IMG/VR virus record: IMGVR_UViG_3300020577_002861
DNA length: 17,266 bases
Strand: one strand, 5' to 3'
From: a virus
Part shown: positions 1 through 11,345 of the stretch, piece by piece
Position numbering within the stretch: the stretch's first letter is position 1
Layout: each line of letters opens with the position of its first letter
Position numbers and translations under genes: made by a program
The notes under the pieces: generated by a model
The model's input: the letters and a program-made list of their open reading frames with translations, nothing else
Database searches by the model: none
Told to the model about the DNA's origin: nothing

Positions 1-138
1 GTCTGGATAGACACCTCTGGTGTGCATCCTTAACACAATATCCCCCAAATAGTTATATTCATCCTCCGTAAATTCTACAATCCTTTTACTTTGCTCCGCC
101 TTTTGTTTAACCTTAAATAGTCGTTTTATAAATTCCAC
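1..138 (-). CDS. hypothetical protein, 3'-truncated by the window edge. A GTG start at 138 is inferred from the conserved upstream motif spacing
   Basis: The frame is open for 46 codons from GTG(138..136) to position 1 (VEFIKRLFKVKQKAEQSKRIVEFTEDEYNYLGDIVLRMHTRGVYPD...). It is preceded by the conserved motif at 151..164 with the same roughly 12-nt spacing seen at three other starts. Confidence 0.35.
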   Translation of the reverse strand, partial: MEFIKRLFKVKQKAEQSKRIVEFTEDEYNYLGDIVLRMHTRGVYPD

Positions 139-150
139 TATCTTCCGAAA

Positions 151-164
151 ATAATAAGTAAAAT
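151..164 (-). promoter_or_regulatory. conserved upstream motif ATTTTACTTATTAT (copy d), 12 nt before the GTG at 138
   Basis: One of four identical 14-mers, each 9-12 nt upstream of a start codon. Confidence 0.5.
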
Positions 165-175
165 CATACACACGC

Positions 176-544
176 CTAGTCACCAATTACATCTCTTATC
201 ACGTCTCCATCACAATTTAACCAACCACCAAGCCATACATGCTCATATTTAAGAACTACATTCTTACTCGCACTCAAAGCCTGCTTGGCCTTATCTATTA
301 AGTCTGTACTTCCATTGTTAATGCAGTACATATCCTCTTGTGATGTTTGTAGGTTAGTCTTAAAATAAACCGTAGTCCTATGTGAATAAAAATTTTCACT
401 AGTGTCTACTGCCGTTATATATCCCTTATGCTCCCCCTTTCCCACAACAACATTCAAAGGCACTACAAATGTCAGAAAAAATAATATTACTGTCGCCACA
501 ATAATTGCAGTCCAGCACCCACCACTTAACTCTAAATCGTCCAT
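176..544 (-). CDS. membrane protein with an N-terminal TM helix, unknown function
   Basis: 122-aa ORF with a hydrophobic stretch (CWTAIIVATVILFFLTFVVPLNVVV) near the N-terminus. The conserved ATTTTACTTATTAT motif lies 11 nt upstream of the ATG. It is co-oriented with its neighbours. Confidence 0.6.
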   Translation of the reverse strand: MDDLELSGGCWTAIIVATVILFFLTFVVPLNVVVGKGEHKGYITAVDTSENFYSHRTTVYFKTNLQTSQEDMYCINNGSTDLIDKAKQALSASKNVVLKYEHVWLGGWLNCDGDVIRDVIGD

Positions 545-555
545 TTTATCTAAAA

Positions 556-569
556 ATAATAAGTAAAAT
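556..569 (-). promoter_or_regulatory. conserved upstream motif ATTTTACTTATTAT (copy a), 11 nt before the ATG at 544
   Basis: Exact 14-mer repeat. The flanking ~30 nt also resemble copy b. Confidence 0.5.
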
Positions 570-597
570 TGCTGTAATTCCTAGTATCACTTTCTTG

Positions 598-963
598 TTA
601 ATAAATACTATTAATCTCGGTAATTTTCTTGGTTAGTAGCTCTCCAATCTTTTCTGAGGCATCGATCACTCCTTTAATGACAATCTTATTTGTATTTTCA
701 ATTACAAGTTCCTTAATATCTGTTTTGTTTTCCTTAACATATTTGCTAATTTCCTTTTTTAGTTCTTCCTTAAAATCCTCTGTGAAAATCGCCTCCCTAA
801 GTAGGTTTGCAATCTCATATTTGAAGTCCCAACTATCTATCTCTCTTATAGCCTGAACGATATTGTCACCTACAGCCTCTGCGACTGCCTTTGCAAATTC
901 TGGATTGTTGAAAGCAGCCTTAATAGCTTCTTTCTTAATGTCTTCTCTTAGTGGCTTTCCCAT
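598..963 (-). CDS. hypothetical helical protein
   Basis: 121-aa ORF with charged, helical-looking composition. The conserved motif lies 11 nt upstream of the ATG. Confidence 0.6.
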   Translation of the reverse strand: MGKPLREDIKKEAIKAAFNNPEFAKAVAEAVGDNIVQAIREIDSWDFKYEIANLLREAIFTEDFKEELKKEISKYVKENKTDIKELVIENTNKIVIKGVIDASEKIGELLTKKITEINSIY

Positions 964-967
964 TTTA

Positions 968-1066
968 TTAAAATATAATAAGTAAAATAGTTGTTATTGT
1001 AAGTATTCCCATGATCTTCCAAAACAACGGATTCTTTAGCACATCTATAGCAGTTTCGTTTTTCAT
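968..1066 (-). CDS. possible 32-aa single-TM micropeptide (MKNETAIDVLKNPLFWKIMGILTITTILLIIF)
   Basis: Its ATG overlaps the TGA of the upstream gene (ATGA at 1063..1066). The hydrophobic C-terminus ends 4 nt before the next ATG. However, its 3' end is encoded by the conserved DNA motif, so it may be a coding by-product. Confidence 0.22.
   Translation of the reverse strand: MKNETAIDVLKNPLFWKIMGILTITTILLIIF
975..988 (-). promoter_or_regulatory. conserved upstream motif ATTTTACTTATTAT (copy b), 11 nt before the ATG at 963
   Basis: Exact 14-mer repeat. Confidence 0.5.
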
Positions 1067-1272
1067 TTCGTTTCTTTAAGAGTTAAAACTGGCTTCCTTA
1101 ACATATTCCTGCACCAGACTATGAATTTATCCATCTTCTCGTCATCCTCATAGGCTACCATCATTAAGTTTAATAGATCTGTCTTGTTCATCTTCTCTAT
1201 CATCTTAAAGAATTTGAACTTGTCGTCTTCCCTATACATAACTATCATTGAGTGTAGTGATCTTTCTGTCAT
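1063..1272 (-). CDS. hypothetical protein
   Basis: 69-aa ORF lying 16 nt downstream of the preceding gene's stop. Acidic and Met-rich. Confidence 0.5.
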   Translation of the reverse strand: MTERSLHSMIVMYREDDKFKFFKMIEKMNKTDLLNLMMVAYEDDEKMDKFIVWCRNMLRKPVLTLKETK

Positions 1273-1288
1273 TGTAATGATTTAAAAA

Positions 1289-2095
1289 TTATTTAACCTC
1301 TACCGCAACCTGGTCGGCCGTTTGATAAAGACCTGGAATACCCGCCATTTCTCTCATCTCATTCATACTTCCAAACTTCTTTTTAAATGTCTTCCATACT
1401 GGCAAATCACGTCCATTCATATCTGAATACATAGGTGTTCTTCCCCTCTCTTTGTAGAAAGCTCTCAACATCTCTAGTAGATTCTCAACTTCATATCTCT
1501 CCAGTCTTTCATCACTCAGAGGTTTAAACCCCGCCCTTCTTACTGCTTCGGGATAACTTCCAAATGTCGTATAAATTGCGCCTACATACTTTCCCCCATA
1601 GCGCTTGACAAACTCAGTCTTACTTGGCACTCTTTCGAGTTCCTTTGCTAGATCCTTGATCTTTTGCATTAACTGGTCTGGACAAGTTCCCATTTTATTT
1701 TTATATTCAGCTGTCTTCTTCCATCTTCTCCCCCTATTTGTTTTCATGGATCTATACCTACTCTTGTTTAACTGTTCTTCTGTAAAGGGTATGTAGTGCT
1801 TTGAGACGCTTGAGTTTCTTAGATAACTCAGTCTTAGTTGATCCCTTCTTTTGTCCGATATTAAGGAAGTTCCCGTGCTTAATCCTAGCTCTTTTTTGTA
1901 CTGTGCCAGACTTTCAACCTTCCCGTTTGTACACCTTCTTATATGGGTAGTTGAGACTGTGTCATAGAACTCTCCACAGTAAGCGCATTGGATCTTGCCA
2001 TCACTAACCCTAGTTGCTACTGTTCCTATATAGCCATAGCCTTTTGTGAATTTCTTTAATGGTTCTTTGTAGTTTTTATAGATTACCTTTTCCAT
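1289..2095 (-). CDS. putative DNA-binding protein with a Cys/His zinc finger and two helical repeats (FGSxxEAxRxAG) like those in homing-endonuclease DNA-binding modules. No clear catalytic nuclease motif
   Basis: 268 aa. CAYCGEFYDTVSTTHIRRC near the N-terminus. Two repeat copies: VGAIYTTFGSYPEAVRRAGFKP and LPVWKTFKKKFGSMNEMREMAGIPG. An N-terminal VIY...YIG is only weakly GIY-YIG-like. Confidence 0.55.
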   Translation of the reverse strand: MEKVIYKNYKEPLKKFTKGYGYIGTVATRVSDGKIQCAYCGEFYDTVSTTHIRRCTNGKVESLAQYKKELGLSTGTSLISDKRRDQLRLSYLRNSSVSKHYIPFTEEQLNKSRYRSMKTNRGRRWKKTAEYKNKMGTCPDQLMQKIKDLAKELERVPSKTEFVKRYGGKYVGAIYTTFGSYPEAVRRAGFKPLSDERLERYEVENLLEMLRAFYKERGRTPMYSDMNGRDLPVWKTFKKKFGSMNEMREMAGIPGLYQTADQVAVEVK

Positions 2096-2182
2096 GTTAG
2101 CTAAATATTATTATTAGAATTATAATTAGAAAAATACTTCCACATGATAATCCGCATATTTCCATATAGTCGAATTAATAAA

Positions 2183-2593
2183 TTAAAGAAACCTTCCTAT
2201 TATGAATCCTGCTCCGAAAATAAGTCCCACAAGAAAGAGGATAACGGCCCAGTTAGTCTTGTATGTTGTAGCCTTTACTTCACCGTCTCCAATCTTCCAT
2301 GAATAAGACTCAAGATATTTATCTGCCAAGGTCTCGCGCACCCTTTCTCCGTCTTCTCTTTCCTTCGCTTTTTCAAGTTCCCTTAGTCTCAGCTCCACAT
2401 TTGCACTTCTCTCGTCTGGGAACAGGTCACACTCATTTAACTGTGGATGTCCTATGAAGGTATACACGTACTCTGATATATAATTAGAGCTTAGTGCCTT
2501 GTAAACAGTAAGTTCTCTAACATATTCTCCGTCTTTAACTACCCAAACAGTACTTCCGTTCTTATACTTTTGCTCTCTCTTTTTCTTTCTCAT
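2183..2593 (-). CDS. C-terminally membrane-anchored protein, unknown function
   Basis: 136 aa with a C-terminal hydrophobic helix (WAVILFLVGLIFGAGFIIGRFL). The conserved motif lies 9 nt upstream of the ATG. Confidence 0.6.
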   Translation of the reverse strand: MRKKKREQKYKNGSTVWVVKDGEYVRELTVYKALSSNYISEYVYTFIGHPQLNECDLFPDERSANVELRLRELEKAKEREDGERVRETLADKYLESYSWKIGDGEVKATTYKTNWAVILFLVGLIFGAGFIIGRFL

Positions 2594-2602
2594 TGTAAAA
2601 TT

Positions 2603-2616
2603 ATAATAAGTAAAAT
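2603..2616 (-). promoter_or_regulatory. conserved upstream motif ATTTTACTTATTAT (copy c), 9 nt before the ATG at 2593. It includes TATAAT
   Basis: Exact 14-mer repeat followed by AATTTTACA ATG. Confidence 0.5.
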
Positions 2617-2619
2617 TAT

Positions 2620-2826
2620 TTAGTCGGTATCTATCGTGCTATCCCAAGAAGTTCGAACATGGTCTTTATATCCTTCGACTGCCCGTTCTACACGCATCCT
2701 GTCTAACGCCCTACGAAGCCTGTCGGGGGCGGTTTCACCATAAAAATCATTCAGATTAACCCTCACCCTTGCCTCAACCTCAATCACATCTTCTTTCGGT
2801 TTTATAATTTCAAATTTCTTTTTCAT
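2620..2826 (-). CDS. hypothetical protein
   Basis: 68-aa ORF. Its ATG overlaps the upstream gene's stop (ATGA at 2823..2826). Confidence 0.5.
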   Translation of the reverse strand: MKKKFEIIKPKEDVIEVEARVRVNLNDFYGETAPDRLRRALDRMRVERAVEGYKDHVRTSWDSTIDTD

Positions 2827-3465: not shown

Positions 3466-3646
3466 CTTTCTTTACCTTTTCAAAATTATAAGTAACCAAT
3501 ACGTCTGAAACACCACTATATTTAGGAATCGCAATAATATCTATAATTCCTCCCCAATAAAGGTCTTTTCTATTTGCCATGATGTCGCACCAATCATTGA
3601 TCTCCTCATCGACCCCATAAGAGTTAAATAGTTTTGTCCTTATCAT
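3446..3646 (-). CDS. hypothetical protein
   Basis: 66-aa ORF with both ends overlapping its neighbours. A partial copy of the conserved motif (ATTATAAGTAA) lies inside it at 3481..3496. Confidence 0.4.
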   Translation of the reverse strand: MIRTKLFNSYGVDEEINDWCDIMANRKDLYWGGIIDIIAIPKYSGVSDVLVTYNFEKVKKDENGTV

Positions 3647-4172: not shown

Positions 4173-4552
4173 CTTCTTGCCACTTCTATTATTTCTTCAA
4201 TAAGCCTGTCTACTTCCTCTACATTTCCATCGTCAGGTTTCCCTGTTCCCCCTATCATTGCGATACGAGCTATCCTTGATGCCACTTCGATCTTCACTAA
4301 CAACAAAGGGGTATCTTCTGAGGATTTCTGTCCTATGGCCTTTGTGGGCCTTACCCCGCTAAATATTTCTTCAATAGCCTCAACAGAGCCATCAACCAGC
4401 GCCCCTGTTTCTTCAAGTGTTGGTGGTTTGCCCCTGGTCTTGTCCGTAAGCTTTGCCGATTCTGTTAAGAAGTTGTAAAGCTCTTTCATTATTTCTAGCT
4501 TTCTTAGCTCTTTTAGCTGGTCTTCTCTAATGTCTTTAAGGTTTGTTTTCAT
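4169..4552 (-). CDS. hypothetical protein between the recombinase and the nuclease
   Basis: 127-aa ORF. Its stop overlaps the ATG of the next gene (ATGA at 4169..4172). Confidence 0.5.
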   Translation of the reverse strand: MKTNLKDIREDQLKELRKLEIMKELYNFLTESAKLTDKTRGKPPTLEETGALVDGSVEAIEEIFSGVRPTKAIGQKSSEDTPLLLVKIEVASRIARIAMIGGTGKPDDGNVEEVDRLIEEIIEVARR

Positions 4553-4569
4553 TTTATCTATTTAATAAA

Positions 4570-5205
4570 TTAGTCTTTTGATTCAATCTTTTCGTATCTC
4601 TCGGCCATAACCTCTTCAATTATCTGCGCAATAGATTCTGGATATAGATCTATATTAGCTACAAATTTATCATTAATCTTATCTAGTGCTTCTATGGTAT
4701 CCGCCTTCGCTATTGCTTCTAATGTCCTGTCTTTTAATGCCGACATATCAGGTTTGGTTTGTGGCACTGCTGGTTTATATGGGGTCTTAGCGACTTCTTT
4801 GTCCTTGCTATTATCCATACCATCAGGGTCATTCTTTGCATCGTCTATTAGGAATAGCCCGCCTAGTGCATACTTTCTCGCATAACTAGATGCCGTTCCT
4901 GTTAGTTGTGGGTCGGACATTTTAGGTCTTGCCACCTCTTCCCTTGCTAGCGCTGTAACCTCTATCGAATCTTTTCCATCCGTAAACTTTGCGGTAGCTT
5001 CAAGATAAAACCTATCTCCCAGCATTATCATCTTGTCAGATAATAAGACTAAATCTCCATTAAGCATTGGTTTGACCGCTTCTAATATTCCCTCACAACT
5101 TCTATAATTAAAATTACCAAAGTCATTATGAATGTTCTTGGGGGACTTTAATCCAATCTGTATCTTTGCCAATCTCTCGTATAAGTTAGTCTTTGTTTTT
5201 TCCAT
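4570..5205 (-). CDS. erf: ERF-family single-strand annealing protein (recombinase)
   Basis: 211 aa. The N-terminal LYERLAKIQIGLKSPKNIHNDFGNFNYRSCEGILEAVKPML and the later TGTASSYARKYALGGLF closely match my recollection of phage P22 Erf (FYARLAEIQEHLNAPKNQYNSFGKYKYRSCEDILEGVKPLL ... SSYARKY). Confidence 0.8.
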   Translation of the reverse strand: MEKTKTNLYERLAKIQIGLKSPKNIHNDFGNFNYRSCEGILEAVKPMLNGDLVLLSDKMIMLGDRFYLEATAKFTDGKDSIEVTALAREEVARPKMSDPQLTGTASSYARKYALGGLFLIDDAKNDPDGMDNSKDKEVAKTPYKPAVPQTKPDMSALKDRTLEAIAKADTIEALDKINDKFVANIDLYPESIAQIIEEVMAERYEKIESKD

Positions 5206-5374
5206 ATGTTTGTTCTAATAAATTAATAATCATTTTGGAGAACCTATTTATTACTTCCTCGACCTCGTCTTCGTCTCTTATGGAGGTAGCTTCTATAGCA
5301 AAGAGAGCTAGGTAGCATTTAACCGCAAGTTCCCTATCCTTTGCTTCCGCATCAATTTTGAACTTTCTTTTCAT
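5186..5374 (-). CDS. hypothetical protein
   Basis: 62-aa ORF overlapping both neighbours. Confidence 0.4.
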   Translation of the reverse strand: MKRKFKIDAEAKDRELAVKCYLALFAIEATSIRDEDEVEEVINRFSKMIINLLEQTYGKNKD

Positions 5375-5573
5375 TCTTTTCTTTTAATAATTTAACTTGG
5401 GGCTTTCTATAAACTATAACCATTCTTACTGTCTTGTCTGTACTATCCATTGAAAATGACTTTACTGCTATGTCCCTACTACCCATAAGACCTTCTAATT
5501 CTCCCACCGTAATCTCTTTCCAGTCCATAACCCTAATCTCTGTAACTGGATTGGTAAGCGTTCTTCTTCGCAT
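5352..5573 (-). CDS. hypothetical protein
   Basis: 73-aa ORF, co-oriented and tightly packed. Confidence 0.45.
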   Translation of the reverse strand: MRRRTLTNPVTEIRVMDWKEITVGELEGLMGSRDIAVKSFSMDSTDKTVRMVIVYRKPQVKLLKEKNEKKVQN

Positions 5574-5589
5574 TTTAAAAGATTAATAA

Positions 5590-5831: not shown

Positions 5832-5860
5832 AGTATACCACTGATTAGTATATTTGTCAA
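5832..5860 (-). promoter_or_regulatory. near-consensus sigma70-type promoter TTGACA-N17-TATACT
   Basis: Minus strand: TTGACA (5860..5855), an exact 17-nt spacer, TATACT (5837..5832). It lies directly downstream of an intrinsic terminator and upstream of the ATG at 5802. Confidence 0.5.
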
Positions 5861-5871
5861 CCCCCTATAAG

Positions 5872-5901
5872 AGCAATAAAAAGAGCCGTTTCCAGCTCTT
5901 T
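5872..5901 (-). terminator. rho-independent terminator after the zinc-ribbon gene
   Basis: Minus strand: stem AAAGAGC / GCTCTTT around an 8-nt loop, followed by TTATTGC, which extends the U-rich tract. Confidence 0.5.
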
Positions 5902-8055: not shown

Positions 8056-8406
8056 TTATTTCTTATATGGGCACTCTGTATCTAGCTCGTATCTCTTTTT
8101 CTTTCTGTTCTCTATGAACAATCTCGTTAAGAACCTGCCTAATCCTGTTAACCCACCTTCGATGTTATGTATTTCCTTTCTATGCAAATCTTTGCAAATT
8201 AAAAGACCCACTTCTGGATCTTGAGAGTGCCTGTCAGAATATGCTTCTGAACAGTGATGAGCTTCTAGTGGTATTTCCTCTCCCTTGTCACTAAACCCAC
8301 ACTCATTCACTGGGCACGCCCTGCAAAATACTGCTCCAAACTCTCTCCTATGATTGGTGATGACGCCTTCTCGAAATTCTCTTTGATTAGGGCGTCTCTC
8401 ACTCAT
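8056..8406 (-). CDS. HNH-like nuclease, a diverged paralog of the 7553..7879 protein
   Basis: 116 aa with CRACPVNEC...EAHHC...ICKDLHRKEIHN. Its N-terminus (REFREGVITNHRREFGAVFCRAC) and C-terminus (LGRFLTRLFIENRKKKRY) align with the neighbour's (KQFFRTTVIDESRKMFGDTVCRMC and LGRMLLEGFIKNSRLRSY). Confidence 0.65.
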   Translation of the reverse strand: MSERRPNQREFREGVITNHRREFGAVFCRACPVNECGFSDKGEEIPLEAHHCSEAYSDRHSQDPEVGLLICKDLHRKEIHNIEGGLTGLGRFLTRLFIENRKKKRYELDTECPYKK

Positions 8407-8427
8407 TTCATTGCTTTAATAACTAAG

Positions 8428-9513: not shown

Positions 9514-10188
9514 TTAAATTATATCTATGCTGTGCTTGGGCTTCGTAATCCCGCCATACTTACCAAACCTATCGTTCCTAACCCAATTAAAAAAGGCGAG
9601 GCGGAAATCTTTATACTTAGTTTTGTTTGCCTGTATATAACCTGTAAAATCTTCTAGGGCTGTAACAACATCTTTGCCTGGGTTTAGATCTTTTGCTCTT
9701 AAAAGTATTTCCTCTTTATTTTCAATAAATATCCTCTCAGAGTTTATGGGTTTGTTATATATTATAATATCATTATTATCATTATTATCATTATTATCAT
9801 TATTGTTAGTGTCTTGTCTGCTGTCTTTCTGCTGTCTTTCTGCTGTCTTGTCTGTTGTCTTACCACCTTGATATTCGTTATAGTTTACTATTGTAATTAT
9901 TGAAGAAACAGAGTTTTTCTGCTGTCTTATCTGGGACTCATTCTCGAGCCATGTGAGGTAACGGCGAACCTTATCCCTACTCCACCTCCATCTCTTGGAT
10001 AAAGACACCTCACTCCACCCGACTTCCCCTCTTTCAACCTTGAGGATATTTCCCCTTACGGATATGATTCCACTCTTATGATTAGCTAATAAAAGTAAAT
10101 CAACCCAGGCCTGTGCCTTGGTAAACGGTTCTGATAACCAAATGCTGTTATCCATTATTTTTCTATGTAACCATATCCAACCTTCCAT
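9514..10188 (-). CDS. replisome-organizer / replication-initiator-like protein: an N-terminal winged-helix-like domain, a low-complexity NND linker, and a C-terminal domain
   Basis: 224 aa. The N-terminus (WLHRKIMDNSIWLSEPFTKAQAWVDLLLLANHKSGIISVRGNILKVERGEVGWSEVSLSKRW) is typical of phage replisome-organizer N-domains. The linker DTNNNDNNDNNDNND is encoded by tandem DNA repeats. Confidence 0.65.
   Translation of the reverse strand: MEGWIWLHRKIMDNSIWLSEPFTKAQAWVDLLLLANHKSGIISVRGNILKVERGEVGWSEVSLSKRWRWSRDKVRRYLTWLENESQIRQQKNSVSSIITIVNYNEYQGGKTTDKTAERQQKDSRQDTNNNDNNDNNDNNDIIIYNKPINSERIFIENKEEILLRAKDLNPGKDVVTALEDFTGYIQANKTKYKDFRLAFFNWVRNDRFGKYGGITKPKHSIDII
9762..9806. repeat. tandem 9-bp AT-rich repeat (ATTATTATC, about 4 copies) inside the initiator gene
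   Basis: cattattat is repeated. It encodes the NND repeats of the linker. Confidence 0.6.
9811..9861. repeat. tandem 11-bp repeat CTGCTGTCTTT (3-4 copies), iteron-like, inside the initiator gene
   Basis: ctgctgtcttt occurs twice exactly and twice degenerately, adjacent to the AT-rich 9-bp repeats. The 11-bp period is not a multiple of 3. Confidence 0.55.
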
Positions 10189-10361
10189 TAAAGCCTCTCC
10201 TTGGATAATAATTTATAAAGTTTTGCTATCCCCTTAAAATCTTCTTTTTCTAGTAGTTCTAAAATTTCCGCAAGTTCTTTTACCGAAATATCAAAGTTTC
10301 CATATCCAGACACGAAGAACCCTGCTTCATGTAGATTTCTTGCTTTTTCTAGGTATTTCAT
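10188..10361 (-). CDS. small helical protein (57 aa), translationally coupled to the initiator gene
   Basis: Below the track's length cutoff. MKYLEKARNLHEAGFFVSGYGNFDISVKELAEILELLEKEDFKGIAKLYKLLSKERL. Its TAA overlaps the ATG of the downstream gene (TAATG at 10186..10190). Confidence 0.4.
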   Translation of the reverse strand: MKYLEKARNLHEAGFFVSGYGNFDISVKELAEILELLEKEDFKGIAKLYKLLSKERL

Positions 10362-10386
10362 AAAGGTTTTCTAATAAAGAACCTCC

Positions 10387-10416
10387 CACCTATGAAACAT
10401 TGACGGAACATAGGTG
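10387..10416 (-). promoter_or_regulatory. hairpin with an 8-bp perfect stem (CACCTATG / CATAGGTG, 14-nt loop) about 26 nt upstream of the small ORF, next to a GGAGG
   Basis: Read directly from the sequence. Confidence 0.35.
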
Positions 10417-10710
10417 AGAGAAGGCAAAGTCCTATAAGGCTCTAGCTTCTGCTGGTTCTGTGGAAATATTTTTAGTCAATGTTGTCATAAAAATAAGCTA
10501 CTCGCTTTTTAGAAAAAAGTCAAGAGGTTTTGTAAAAAGATCCTGGTGGACATTTTGGAGAGAGACCTCCCCTCCCCAGGGTATCACCAGATGCTATCAG
10601 GCGAGTTTAAAGTGCCCTAGAACGAACGAAAATATGGAAGTGGTACATTGTACCTAGGAATCGTTTTAGAGCATTTTAAAGTCCCTGGTATAGTTCCTTT
10701 GACATTGATT

Positions 10711-10736
10711 AAAAAGAGAGGTAAATGCCCTCTCTT
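10711..10736 (-). terminator. rho-independent terminator (minus strand only)
   Basis: Minus strand: stem AGAGAGG gcattta CCTCTCT followed by TTTTTAATC. On the plus strand no U-tract follows. Confidence 0.5.
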
Positions 10737-10940
10737 CGCAAATAGTTATTTGAGCCACTACGCACAAAAGTCTTTTGCGTTAATTCAGCTTACACTTAGG
10801 GGAAGAGTTTGGCAATAAAAAACTCCTATATTGTGTTTTCAGTTGAGTGTTTAGGTCATCTGTTCGTAAACAACATAGGAGCACACAAAATTATCAGACG
10901 CGGGTTAGTTTAAAAGCAGCCCCGCAGTATCGGTGTACTG
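10711..10940 (-). ncRNA. candidate non-coding transcript of about 225 nt, bracketed by a promoter-like element and a terminator
   Basis: It runs from the predicted start just downstream of TTGCCA-17-TATATT (10974..10946) to the terminator at 10736..10711. No ORF longer than 18 codons. A Bacteroidetes-type TAATTTTG box also occurs at 10893..10886. Confidence 0.25.
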
Positions 10941-10945
10941 CTTTT
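10912..10945. terminator. bidirectional hairpin terminator
   Basis: Stem AAAAGCAG / CTGCTTTT with an inner CCG/CGG stem. U-rich tracts follow on both strands (TTTTAATAT on plus, TTTTAAAC on minus). Confidence 0.5.
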
Positions 10946-10974
10946 AATATACACCCCAACAATAAAAATGGCAA
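10946..10974 (-). promoter_or_regulatory. sigma70-like promoter-like element TTGCCA-N17-TATATT (copy 1 of a duplicated element)
   Basis: -35 at 10974..10969, -10 at 10951..10946, spacer exactly 17 nt. It is embedded in the direct repeat GGGTGTATATTRAAAAG. Confidence 0.35.
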
Positions 10975-10998
10975 GTAGCTTTGAGGAGACTACCTGCC
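10961..10998 (-). terminator. rho-independent terminator, first after the holin gene
   Basis: Minus strand: stem GGCAGGTAG / CTACTTGCC with one mismatch and an 11-nt loop, followed by ATTTTTATT. It lies 38 nt downstream of the holin stop. Confidence 0.45.
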
Positions 10999-11020
10999 AT
11001 AATCTTATACCTTCTTTTTC

Positions 11021-11049
11021 AATATACACCCAGTTTTATTTTCCTGCAA
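11021..11049 (-). promoter_or_regulatory. sigma70-like promoter-like element TTGCAG-N17-TATATT (copy 2), overlapping the holin stop codon
   Basis: -35 at 11049..11044, -10 at 11026..11021, spacer exactly 17 nt. It shares GGGTGTATATT with copy 1. Confidence 0.3.
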
Positions 11050-11314
11050 TAGCCTTAGAAACCTCGGTATCTTTTAGAAGTGCTAGGTATACAACCTGAG
11101 AAGCGCCAAAGATTACGCTGAACCTAGCAAGTAAGTCTTGCCAGTCCATGATTGGTTTTGTACTTACTTCTGCAAACAGTGCTATAGCAAGGGCTAATCC
11201 ACCAGCTACAAGTCTTGTTGCTAATGCACCTTCTAGCTTTAAGAATCTCTTAGCGAGATCTACAATTAGAGGAAGCACTATTCCCGCTAACAATGTTACT
11301 GTGTTTACATCCAT
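11036..11314 (-). CDS. holin, about three TM helices
   Basis: 92 aa with hydrophobic segments VTLLAGIVLPLIVDL, LVAGGLALAIALFAEV and FSVIFGASQVVYLALL. It lies immediately downstream of the lysin. Confidence 0.55.
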   Translation of the reverse strand: MDVNTVTLLAGIVLPLIVDLAKRFLKLEGALATRLVAGGLALAIALFAEVSTKPIMDWQDLLARFSVIFGASQVVYLALLKDTEVSKAIAGK

Positions 11315-11345
11315 AAAAATAAAATAATAAATAAATTATCGAATC

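Follow-up and report, generated by a model that had tools for sequence, protein, structure and literature searches.

The IMG/VR virus record IMGVR_UViG_3300020577_002861 is a contig of 17,266 nucleotides (nt); the window analysed here is this entire contig, to which the counts and scans for this phage were confined. All of its convincing genes lie on the minus strand, and they include a tailed-phage set (a tail protein, an M23 peptidase, ERF, a PD-(D/E)XK nuclease and an HNH_repeat protein). Near the left end, the 14-mer ATTTTACTTATTAT occurs four times on the minus strand, shortly ahead of the start codons of the last operon gene (5' part at 1..138, running beyond the window), a 122-amino-acid (aa) membrane protein gene (176..544), a 121-aa gene (598..963) and a 136-aa gene (2183..2593). 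An earlier note on this DNA had reported four exact copies 9-12 nt before starts, and the scan confirmed them; about 0.0002 copies per strand were expected from base composition, and no other 14-mer reached four copies. The gap to the next start was 12 nt (GTG 138), 11 nt (ATG 544), 11 nt (ATG 963) and 9 nt (ATG 2593). These copies are special by ancestry: they represent the 3' end of a small membrane-peptide gene, once in full and three times in part. Their core belongs to an element, TTA-N-TTATTA, that precedes start codons in a group of related phages; from this pattern we infer that the group uses it where other phages use the Shine-Dalgarno (SD) sequence.

Copy 3 (975..988) provides the I-L-L-I-I codons at the 3' end of an intact 32-codon small gene (968..1066, minus strand; MKNETAIDVLKNPLFWKIMGILTITTILLIIF and a stop). 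The ATG of this gene overlaps the stop of the gene at 1063-1272 (ATGA), its own stop lies 1 nt before ATG 963, and the TTATTA within the copy (976-981) lies 12 nt before the same ATG. Copies 1 (151..164) and 2 (556..569) lie in truncated ends of the small gene. The mini-frame around copy 1 spans 138-173 and reads VCMILLIIFGR, with its TAG overlapping GTG 138; that around copy 2 spans 546-590 and reads VILGITAILLIIFR before its stop, and TTATTA at 557-562 lies 12 nt before ATG 544. Copy 4 (2603..2616) is non-coding here and stands right after the TAA of the gene at 2620-2826, with TTATTA at 2604-2609, 10 nt before ATG 2593. All four copies read I-L-L-I-I in one frame, and the stop of that frame overlaps the next start or lies within 1 nt of it, as TAAAATG, TAGTG or ATGA. 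A 24-nt repeat family running from the motif to the start codon covered all four (75-88% identity), and a 47-nt family joined three of them (136-182, 541-587 and 960-1006). Upstream of the 14-mer, homology to the small gene extended for 21 nt in copy 2, 13 nt in copy 1 and 0 nt in copy 4. Copies 1, 2 and 4 are, to judge from these alignments, truncated duplicates of the small-gene 3' end. The start behind copy 1 is ambiguous, since the gene caller on an identical Logan contig chose the in-frame GTG at 171 (89 aa instead of 78 aa), which places the motif inside the coding sequence; by analogy with the other three copies, GTG 138 is the more likely start. The degenerate fifth copy that the earlier note had placed at 3481-3496 (GTTACTTATAATTTTG) was not upheld, as it is not within three ungapped mismatches, shares only TTACTTAT..AATTTT with the motif and lies 15 nt from ATG 3465.

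Relatives of this phage were found via proteins, and gene starts were taken from open reading frame (ORF) structure. They comprised three parts of one 38-kb IMG/VR contig (L001, L005 and L014) and four Logan contigs (L004, L006, L010 and L011). The small gene occurs in full five times across the window and these relatives, with 32-34 codons each: two in L004, each with the exact 14-mer, one in L005/L006 (TTATTACTTATTAA) and one in L010/L011 (CTTTTACTTGTTAT), besides that in the window. Each overlaps a different upstream gene by (A/G)TGA, and the end of each meets the start of a different downstream gene. In the N-terminal, hydrophilic half, 29 codon differences were synonymous and 20 non-synonymous; in the hydrophobic, transmembrane half (mean hydropathy of the C-terminal half 2.2-3.3), 19 were synonymous and 60 non-synonymous, yet the 14-mer within it was fixed. 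No Pfam or PHROG family matched the small gene. Start, stop and frame were conserved in the relatives, the N-terminal half had a synonymous excess and a hydrophobic segment was present, as in a protein-coding gene; because of the synonymous excess, the 32-codon peptide is probably real. The transmembrane half evolves fast while the 14-mer stays frozen, which points to constraint acting on the 14-mer at the nucleotide level. The 14-mer was identical in seven copies over three phages, and the flanks of the copies were only 62-88% identical. Folding of the sequence around the seven copies revealed no RNA structure beyond that of shuffled sequence (z-scores -0.4 to +1.2). The exact 14-mer was also present in at least 120 unrelated IMG/VR contigs; among the matches listed, one contig had more than one copy and an ATG stood 9-12 nt downstream in 9 of 122 occurrences. 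A general viral element was ruled out on this basis, the occurrences being mostly single-copy and rarely near an ATG, and the 14-mer elsewhere in IMG/VR is a chance match.

Bases 4-13 of the 14-mer (TTACTTATTA) are a perfect instance of TTA-N-TTATTA, the consensus obtained from 56 distinct sites, in which the spacer from TTATTA to ATG had a mode of 10 nt and a range of 9-12 nt. Exact TTATTA stood 9-12 nt before the ATG at 10 of the 34 annotated starts of the window compared with 2 of 335 other ATGs (p = 7e-10); when one mismatch was allowed, the counts rose to 19/34 and 13/335 (p = 1e-14). Shuffled upstream regions contained a mean of 0.5 sites, and none of 5000 shuffles reached 10. The enrichment was not owed to the repeat: when the three 14-mer copies counted (starts 2593, 963 and 544) were dropped, seven exact sites were retained among the other 31 starts. 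A search for the pattern TTATTA-N9-12-ATG gave 12 matches in the window (1.6 expected), all on the gene strand, and 11 were at gene starts (10 annotated and one belonging to a second mini-gene). Examples with a 10-nt spacer on the minus strand are 4550..4568, 5203-5221, 5372-5390, 5571-5589, 8404-8422, 10359-10377 and 11312-11330. The element occurred 24 times on the gene strand and 11 times on the opposite strand of the window, and 20 versus 1 times in L010. At starts 5374 and 5205, where genes overlap, the element lies within the upstream coding sequence, so that it precedes internal, overlapping genes and is not confined to the first genes of operons. All 34 starts were ATG, and an SD-like sequence was found at only two of them; the earlier note's statement that the four starts lack an SD sequence therefore holds for nearly the whole contig.

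The signal was enriched in the relatives as well, namely in L004 (10 of 14 starts), L010, L005 and L014. In 13 further, independent IMG/VR contigs, which share 59-62% identity with the 38-kb relative in the large terminase, it preceded 12 of 132 starts and 7 of 2610 other ATGs (p = 4e-12). The enrichment was absent in the controls, which were more distant terminase relatives, an SD-type contig, Bacteroides phage BF1-2 and L008, a contig of an unrelated, SD-using phage type. In a side comparison, contigs L028-L033 (large terminase 41% identical to that of L005/L014) had TAnnTTTG boxes and A-rich stretches before ATG and no TTATTA element; the start signal thus differs within one terminase lineage, presumably changing with the host. 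Exact TTATTA sites preceded a head-scaffold gene and a major-tail gene in the relatives. The earlier note had read the clustering of the four copies at the distal end of the early block as a distinct temporal class. This could not be sustained, as the core precedes about one third to one half of the genes of the contig and, in relatives, the scaffold and major-tail genes, and it is therefore no mark of a temporal class.

The second mini membrane-peptide gene (2097..2165, minus strand; MEICGLSCGSIFLIIILIIIFS and a stop) contains a copy of the 14-mer with two mismatches (2122-2135); a TTATTA-N10-ATG of its own lies at 2163-2181, and 1 nt separates the stop of this gene from ATG 2095. It has a 27-codon homolog in L010 and the same design as the first mini-gene family. 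The ATG at 2095 belongs to the HNH_repeat (homing-endonuclease-associated) gene (1289..2095, minus strand), an insertion relative to L010; this insertion shortens the second mini-gene, and the HNH_repeat ATG abuts the mini-gene stop (TAACATG).

The best sigma-70-type promoter of the contig was found at 5832..5860 on the minus strand (TTGACA-17-TATACT with TG). This promoter is conserved in L010, and ATATTA follows it in the predicted leader, 10 nt before ATG 5802. A terminator-like hairpin with a T tract lies just upstream (5880..5901, minus strand), and no terminator-like site was found on the minus strand between 5880 and position 1; all four copies are therefore placed inside one predicted operon. 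The promoter at 5860-5832 is the probable start of an early operon running to the left end and the likely source of a transcript with all four copies. The 14-mer copies are not at the head of a transcription unit but inside tightly packed same-strand genes downstream of this promoter. Seven canonical TTGACA-N17-TATAYT promoters in the window, L004, L005, L010 and L022 had the hexamer 11-13 nt after the -10 box and the ATG 9-11 nt later. Because the hexamer follows the -10 boxes of canonical promoters, the TTATTA element would sit in the 5' leader, where an SD sequence would be, if the predicted 5' ends are right. Upstream of the -10-like TATTAT within the 14-mer, a scan for a -35-like hexamer at 16-18 nt reported only CTTACA at copy 3 (4/6; 9/12 in total); the earlier note's claim that no -35 is present thus stands at copies 1, 2 and 4 and is weakened slightly at copy 3. 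With no -35 of note and no position at the head of a transcription unit, the element is, as that note had concluded, not a standard sigma70 promoter.

Homology to the relatives started or stopped at the 14-mer or at the start codon for all four copies. When the window was compared with L010, a 96%-identical block ended at 2761, the 3' end of the gene at 2620-2826 being replaced, and homology resumed at 2618 (85%), two bases ahead of copy 4. For the 136-aa gene that follows copy 4, an ortholog is present in L010 and L011, and the 36-nt stretch TAATTTTACTTATTATAATTTTACAATGAGAAAGAA, consisting of copy 4 and the spacer, was 100% identical in both. Since this stretch is invariant beside a gene that is only 85% identical in nucleotides and 76% in amino acids, it argues for continuing selection on the copy-4 leader. 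Alignment of the module of the 122-aa gene began in the first bases of copy 2, at 570 for L004 and at 566 for L005. That of the small-gene module extended to 960, the start codon after copy 3. Copy 1 was 80-93% identical to the full small-gene 3' ends of L010 and L004 over window positions 180-140 and no further. The 121-aa gene is a cassette present in this phage only among the close relatives and is bracketed by a 47-nt direct repeat (541..587 and 960..1006, minus strand, 81% identity); L004 and L005 lack it, the 122-aa gene there coming immediately after the small gene. The only detectable homolog of the 121-aa gene lies in L008 (3390-3755, 67% aa identity), where AAGGAG precedes the ATG, in place of the TTATTA element found in the window. 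The 121-aa protein had a weak MVP_shoulder match. L010 has an extra 120-aa gene relative to the window.

We favour, with moderate confidence, an explanation in which a non-SD signal of the ribosome-binding type is combined with paralogous duplication of the small-gene end at module junctions, and no new class of promoter is involved. The part of this explanation that assigns TTA-N-TTATTA to translation initiation seems to us somewhat better than an even bet; it was the second option of the earlier note, and the distribution and position of the element favour it. All four copies would be transcribed in one long operon from the promoter at 5860-5832, and UUAnUUAUUA, with an unstructured, G-poor spacer of about 10 nt, would mark the ribosome start for each downstream cistron. 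Possible readers are protein S1, another ribosomal protein or an unusual rRNA contact. Accessory genes would be exchanged between related phages together with their own start signal, and recombination in or next to the small-gene 3' end would have left one full and three truncated copies at the junctions. The full mini-genes would be under a double constraint, as I-L-L-I-I is required by the peptide and TTA-N-TTATTA, at 10-12 nt, by the next gene. With the TT of the signal fixed, only C in the N position would give Leu, and the AT pairs on either side would be bases of Ile codons; the truncated copies would carry the same 14 bases by descent. The exact identity of the four copies would then be due to common descent and the double constraint, and the fixed distance to the next start would arise because genes move with their start signal and recombination falls in the shared stretch.

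The functionally closest match among known systems is the class of non-SD ribosome-binding site (RBS) motifs. Those of GeneMarkS-2 group B (bioRxiv 10.1101/193490) occur mostly in bacteria of the FCB group, for example Bacteroides and Flavobacterium, and are A-rich (TAAAAA-like), about 7-9 nt from the start. The phages studied here resemble group B in having one short non-SD motif at a narrow, short distance from the start, before first and internal genes alike, on mRNA predicted to be leadered, with SD sequences almost absent. By the logic applied to group B, one and the same non-SD motif cannot be a promoter if it stands at a fixed, short spacing from the starts of internal operon genes as well as of first ones. 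They differ in that TTA-N-TTATTA is T-rich, more specific and separated from the start by 10-11 nt, and in having promoters of the canonical TTGACA/TATAAT kind and not of the Bacteroidetes type.

Several points weigh against a ribosome-binding function, which is deduced from position and distribution. In being T-rich and specific, the consensus departs from the A-rich non-SD motifs of the FCB group, and the spacer of 10-11 nt is longer than typical SD spacing. Several copies have good -10-like hexamers at leaderless spacing, 6 nt before the ATG (TATAAT in copy 4; TATATT in the L004b and L010 copies), and these particular sites may therefore act as promoters. The element is missing from about half of the genes, mostly those with ATGA or TAATG overlaps, and the gene starts on which all of this depends come from ORF structure.

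A bolder form of the explanation, which we regard as unlikely, is that TTA-N-TTATTA, 10-11 nt before AUG, serves a low-GC lineage of uncultured bacteria, together with its phages, as a sequence-specific code for ribosome recruitment in place of SD; either a dedicated ribosomal protein or a 16S rRNA with an altered 3' tail would read it. The element would then be a second "SD-like" code, as distinct from a generic enhancer that is AU-rich or A-rich.

Less likely than such a code is an unrecognised transcription system of the phage, whose promoter the element would be and which would make one leaderless mRNA per gene. In this reading, which is close to a proposal of the earlier note, TTA-N-TTATTA or the 14-mer would be a -35-less promoter for a phage-modified or phage-encoded polymerase or sigma factor, and the resulting single-gene mRNAs would be leaderless or have very short leaders. 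T4 late promoters (TATAAATA) are of the -10-only type, and Thermus phage P23-45 has leaderless middle and late transcripts. The element shares with these, and with the leaderless promoters of GeneMarkS-2 group C, an AT-rich hexamer that lacks a -35 and keeps a constant, short distance to the ATG downstream. All starts are ATG, as leaderless mRNAs require, and the TATAAT of copy 4 and the TATATT of the L004b and L010 copies stand at exactly 6 nt. However, such a TANNNT box is not clade-wide, and the conserved hexamer ends 10-11 nt before the ATG. The -10-only and leaderless elements occupy -12 to -7, have a conserved A-11 and T-7 and occur only ahead of transcription units; TTATTA occupies -16 to -11, out of -10 register, has no conserved equivalent of T-7 (A22 C9 G5 T20 of 56) and occurs within operons and leaders as well. 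It lies in the predicted leaders of canonical promoters and, where genes overlap, within coding sequence; the genes that it precedes are of the early, accessory and structural kinds, terminators are lacking between units, and no polymerase or sigma gene was seen in the roughly 47 kb examined. We consider this explanation rather improbable, and the earlier note's proposal is not supported.

The copies might also be neutral scars, that is, recent partial duplications of the small-gene end by recombination, functionless and identical merely through recency. Truncated copies at mosaic junctions, whose 5' break points differ from copy to copy (0, 13 and 21 nt ahead of the 14-mer), are what recombination of this kind would leave. 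We find it quite improbable, since the flanks have diverged to 62-88% while the 14-mer is identical in seven copies of three phages, copy 4 with its spacer is fully conserved beside the 85%-identical gene, and the core is independently enriched at the seven exact sites among the other 31 starts.

In a further explanation, which we rate as very doubtful, UUAUUA would be an endoribonuclease site at which the polycistronic mRNA is trimmed to units with short leaders, or versions resembling TTAAT-N-ATTAA would be operators bound by a phage protein, for example the product of a small HTH_24 gene. In its favour are the AU-rich, single-stranded nature of the element, the near-palindromic form of many general sites (e.g., TTAATTATTAA) and a small HTH gene nearby, conserved in every relative. 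Against this, the 14-mer itself is not palindromic and nothing links a nuclease to the locus, and the strand specificity of TTATTA together with its anchoring to ATG fits a signal for mRNA or the ribosome better than an operator.

Other candidates were rejected: an archaeal TATA or BRE promoter by its wrong distance to the ATG, the bacterial gene content (ERF, M23 peptidase and terminase) and the perfect TTGACA -35 boxes; a terminator or RNA-processing hairpin, as no stem-loop was found at the motif; an integron attC-like or PeSL-like hairpin, for want of structure; read-through or frameshifting of the upstream gene into the ILLII frame, as the frame relation differs between the window and L010; and a homing-endonuclease target, as a phage with four copies in its own genome would cut itself. 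The Bacteroidetes -7 box (TAnnTTTG) was dismissed as inconsistent across copies, being perfect only in the L004b and L010 copies (TATATTTG); the window copies read TATATTTT, TATTTTTA, TATTTTCG and TAATTTTA at this position, and the general sites lack it.

The location of the repeat invites comparison with the promoter-early stem-loop (PeSL) cassettes of T4-type phages, which are non-coding and consist of strong sigma-70 promoters and terminator stem-loops (Arbiol et al. 2010, PMC2839356). In both cases small accessory genes are separated by repeated expression signals, found where close relatives differ by an indel or a replacement, and recombination between repeats shuffles cassettes; the 14-mer lies at the boundaries of such differences, with break points at 2618, 570/566, 960 and 180-140. 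Unlike PeSL cassettes, the 14-mer has no -35, stem-loop or terminator, and the repeat consists of the coding 3' end of a small gene and a start-anchored signal. Lambdoid and dairy temperate phages have short conserved boundary or "linker" sequences at gene junctions, which coincide with recombination break points. Compared with these linkers, the junction described here has a double role, ending a small gene and providing the start signal of the next.

The affinities of the phage were examined at several levels. Megablast of the whole window against GenBank phages gave no match at the DNA level, and the window had no tRNA genes and no Rfam families. Its GC content is 0.38, the coding strand is purine-rich and codon usage favours AGA/AGG and ATA. 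The large terminase was nearest to those of Bacteroides phages, at only 35% identity, and ERF to those of lambdoid phages (43-47% identity). No host or prophage was found when genome contigs were scanned with the small-gene DNA pattern and the M23 peptidase alignment. In exact and degenerate form, that pattern gave just the known IMG/VR relative among viral contigs and nothing among metagenome and genome contigs; a search for related loci with the ERF, HNH_repeat and 121-aa proteins gave nothing, and a literature search on TTATTA or UUAUUA as a start signal was unproductive. As a matter of speculation, a host in the FCB group outside the Bacteroidetes would fit the canonical promoters and the affinities of terminase and ERF.

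Further observations were made along the contigs. Perfect TTGACA-N17-TATATT promoters were present at L004 247, L004 1752, L005 6706 and L005 9500, and three of the four (L004 247 and 1752; L005 9500) overlapped the last codons of small HTH_24 genes (..TTGACAARTGTAAAGTAA), an arrangement that suggests a conserved association of regulator and promoter. A conserved hairpin, GGTAG..CTACC followed by AGCTCTTTAA, was found at L002 1349-1377, just past the left end of the window, and at L004 about 1408-1440. In the phage of the window it follows the last operon gene, and in L004 the 122-aa gene; it may thus terminate the operon. Many predicted membrane proteins without a known family are encoded in the accessory region, among them the two mini transmembrane-peptide families; transmembrane segments were predicted near the N-terminus of the 122-aa protein (176-544) and the C-terminus of the 136-aa protein (2183-2593). 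A holin-like 92-aa protein of no known family is encoded at 11036-11314 (minus strand). The 674 nt at 10362-11035 had no convincing gene and a flat GC skew, with two weaker promoter-like sites on the minus strand at 10974-10946 and from 10523 onward, and may be a regulatory or origin region. The gene at 9514-10188 contains adjacent tandem arrays at 9768-9861, one of a 9-nt unit (4.1 repeats, 100% match) and one of a unit of about 11-12 nt (4.5 repeats), encoding low-complexity peptide repeats that are N/D-rich and Q/T/K/D-rich.

For this clade of uncultured phages, the analysis describes a common start signal that is sharply defined, SD-free and not A-rich. In practice, TTATTA-N10-ATG fixes start codons and reveals mini-genes of 22-34 codons that gene callers missed. 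The locus also exemplifies the shuffling of accessory genes, here by recombination in a "linker" formed where the end of a tiny gene overlaps the start signal of the next, and the 121-aa gene is a natural swap, having AAGGAG in another phage and the TTATTA element here. What is new is a T-rich variant of non-SD start signal and the shuffling of cassettes through its repeat, phenomena of which both kinds were already known. The finding would gain weight if the T-rich element is indeed a specific alternative to the SD interaction, and the element could point to an unusual mechanism of translation initiation in the host.

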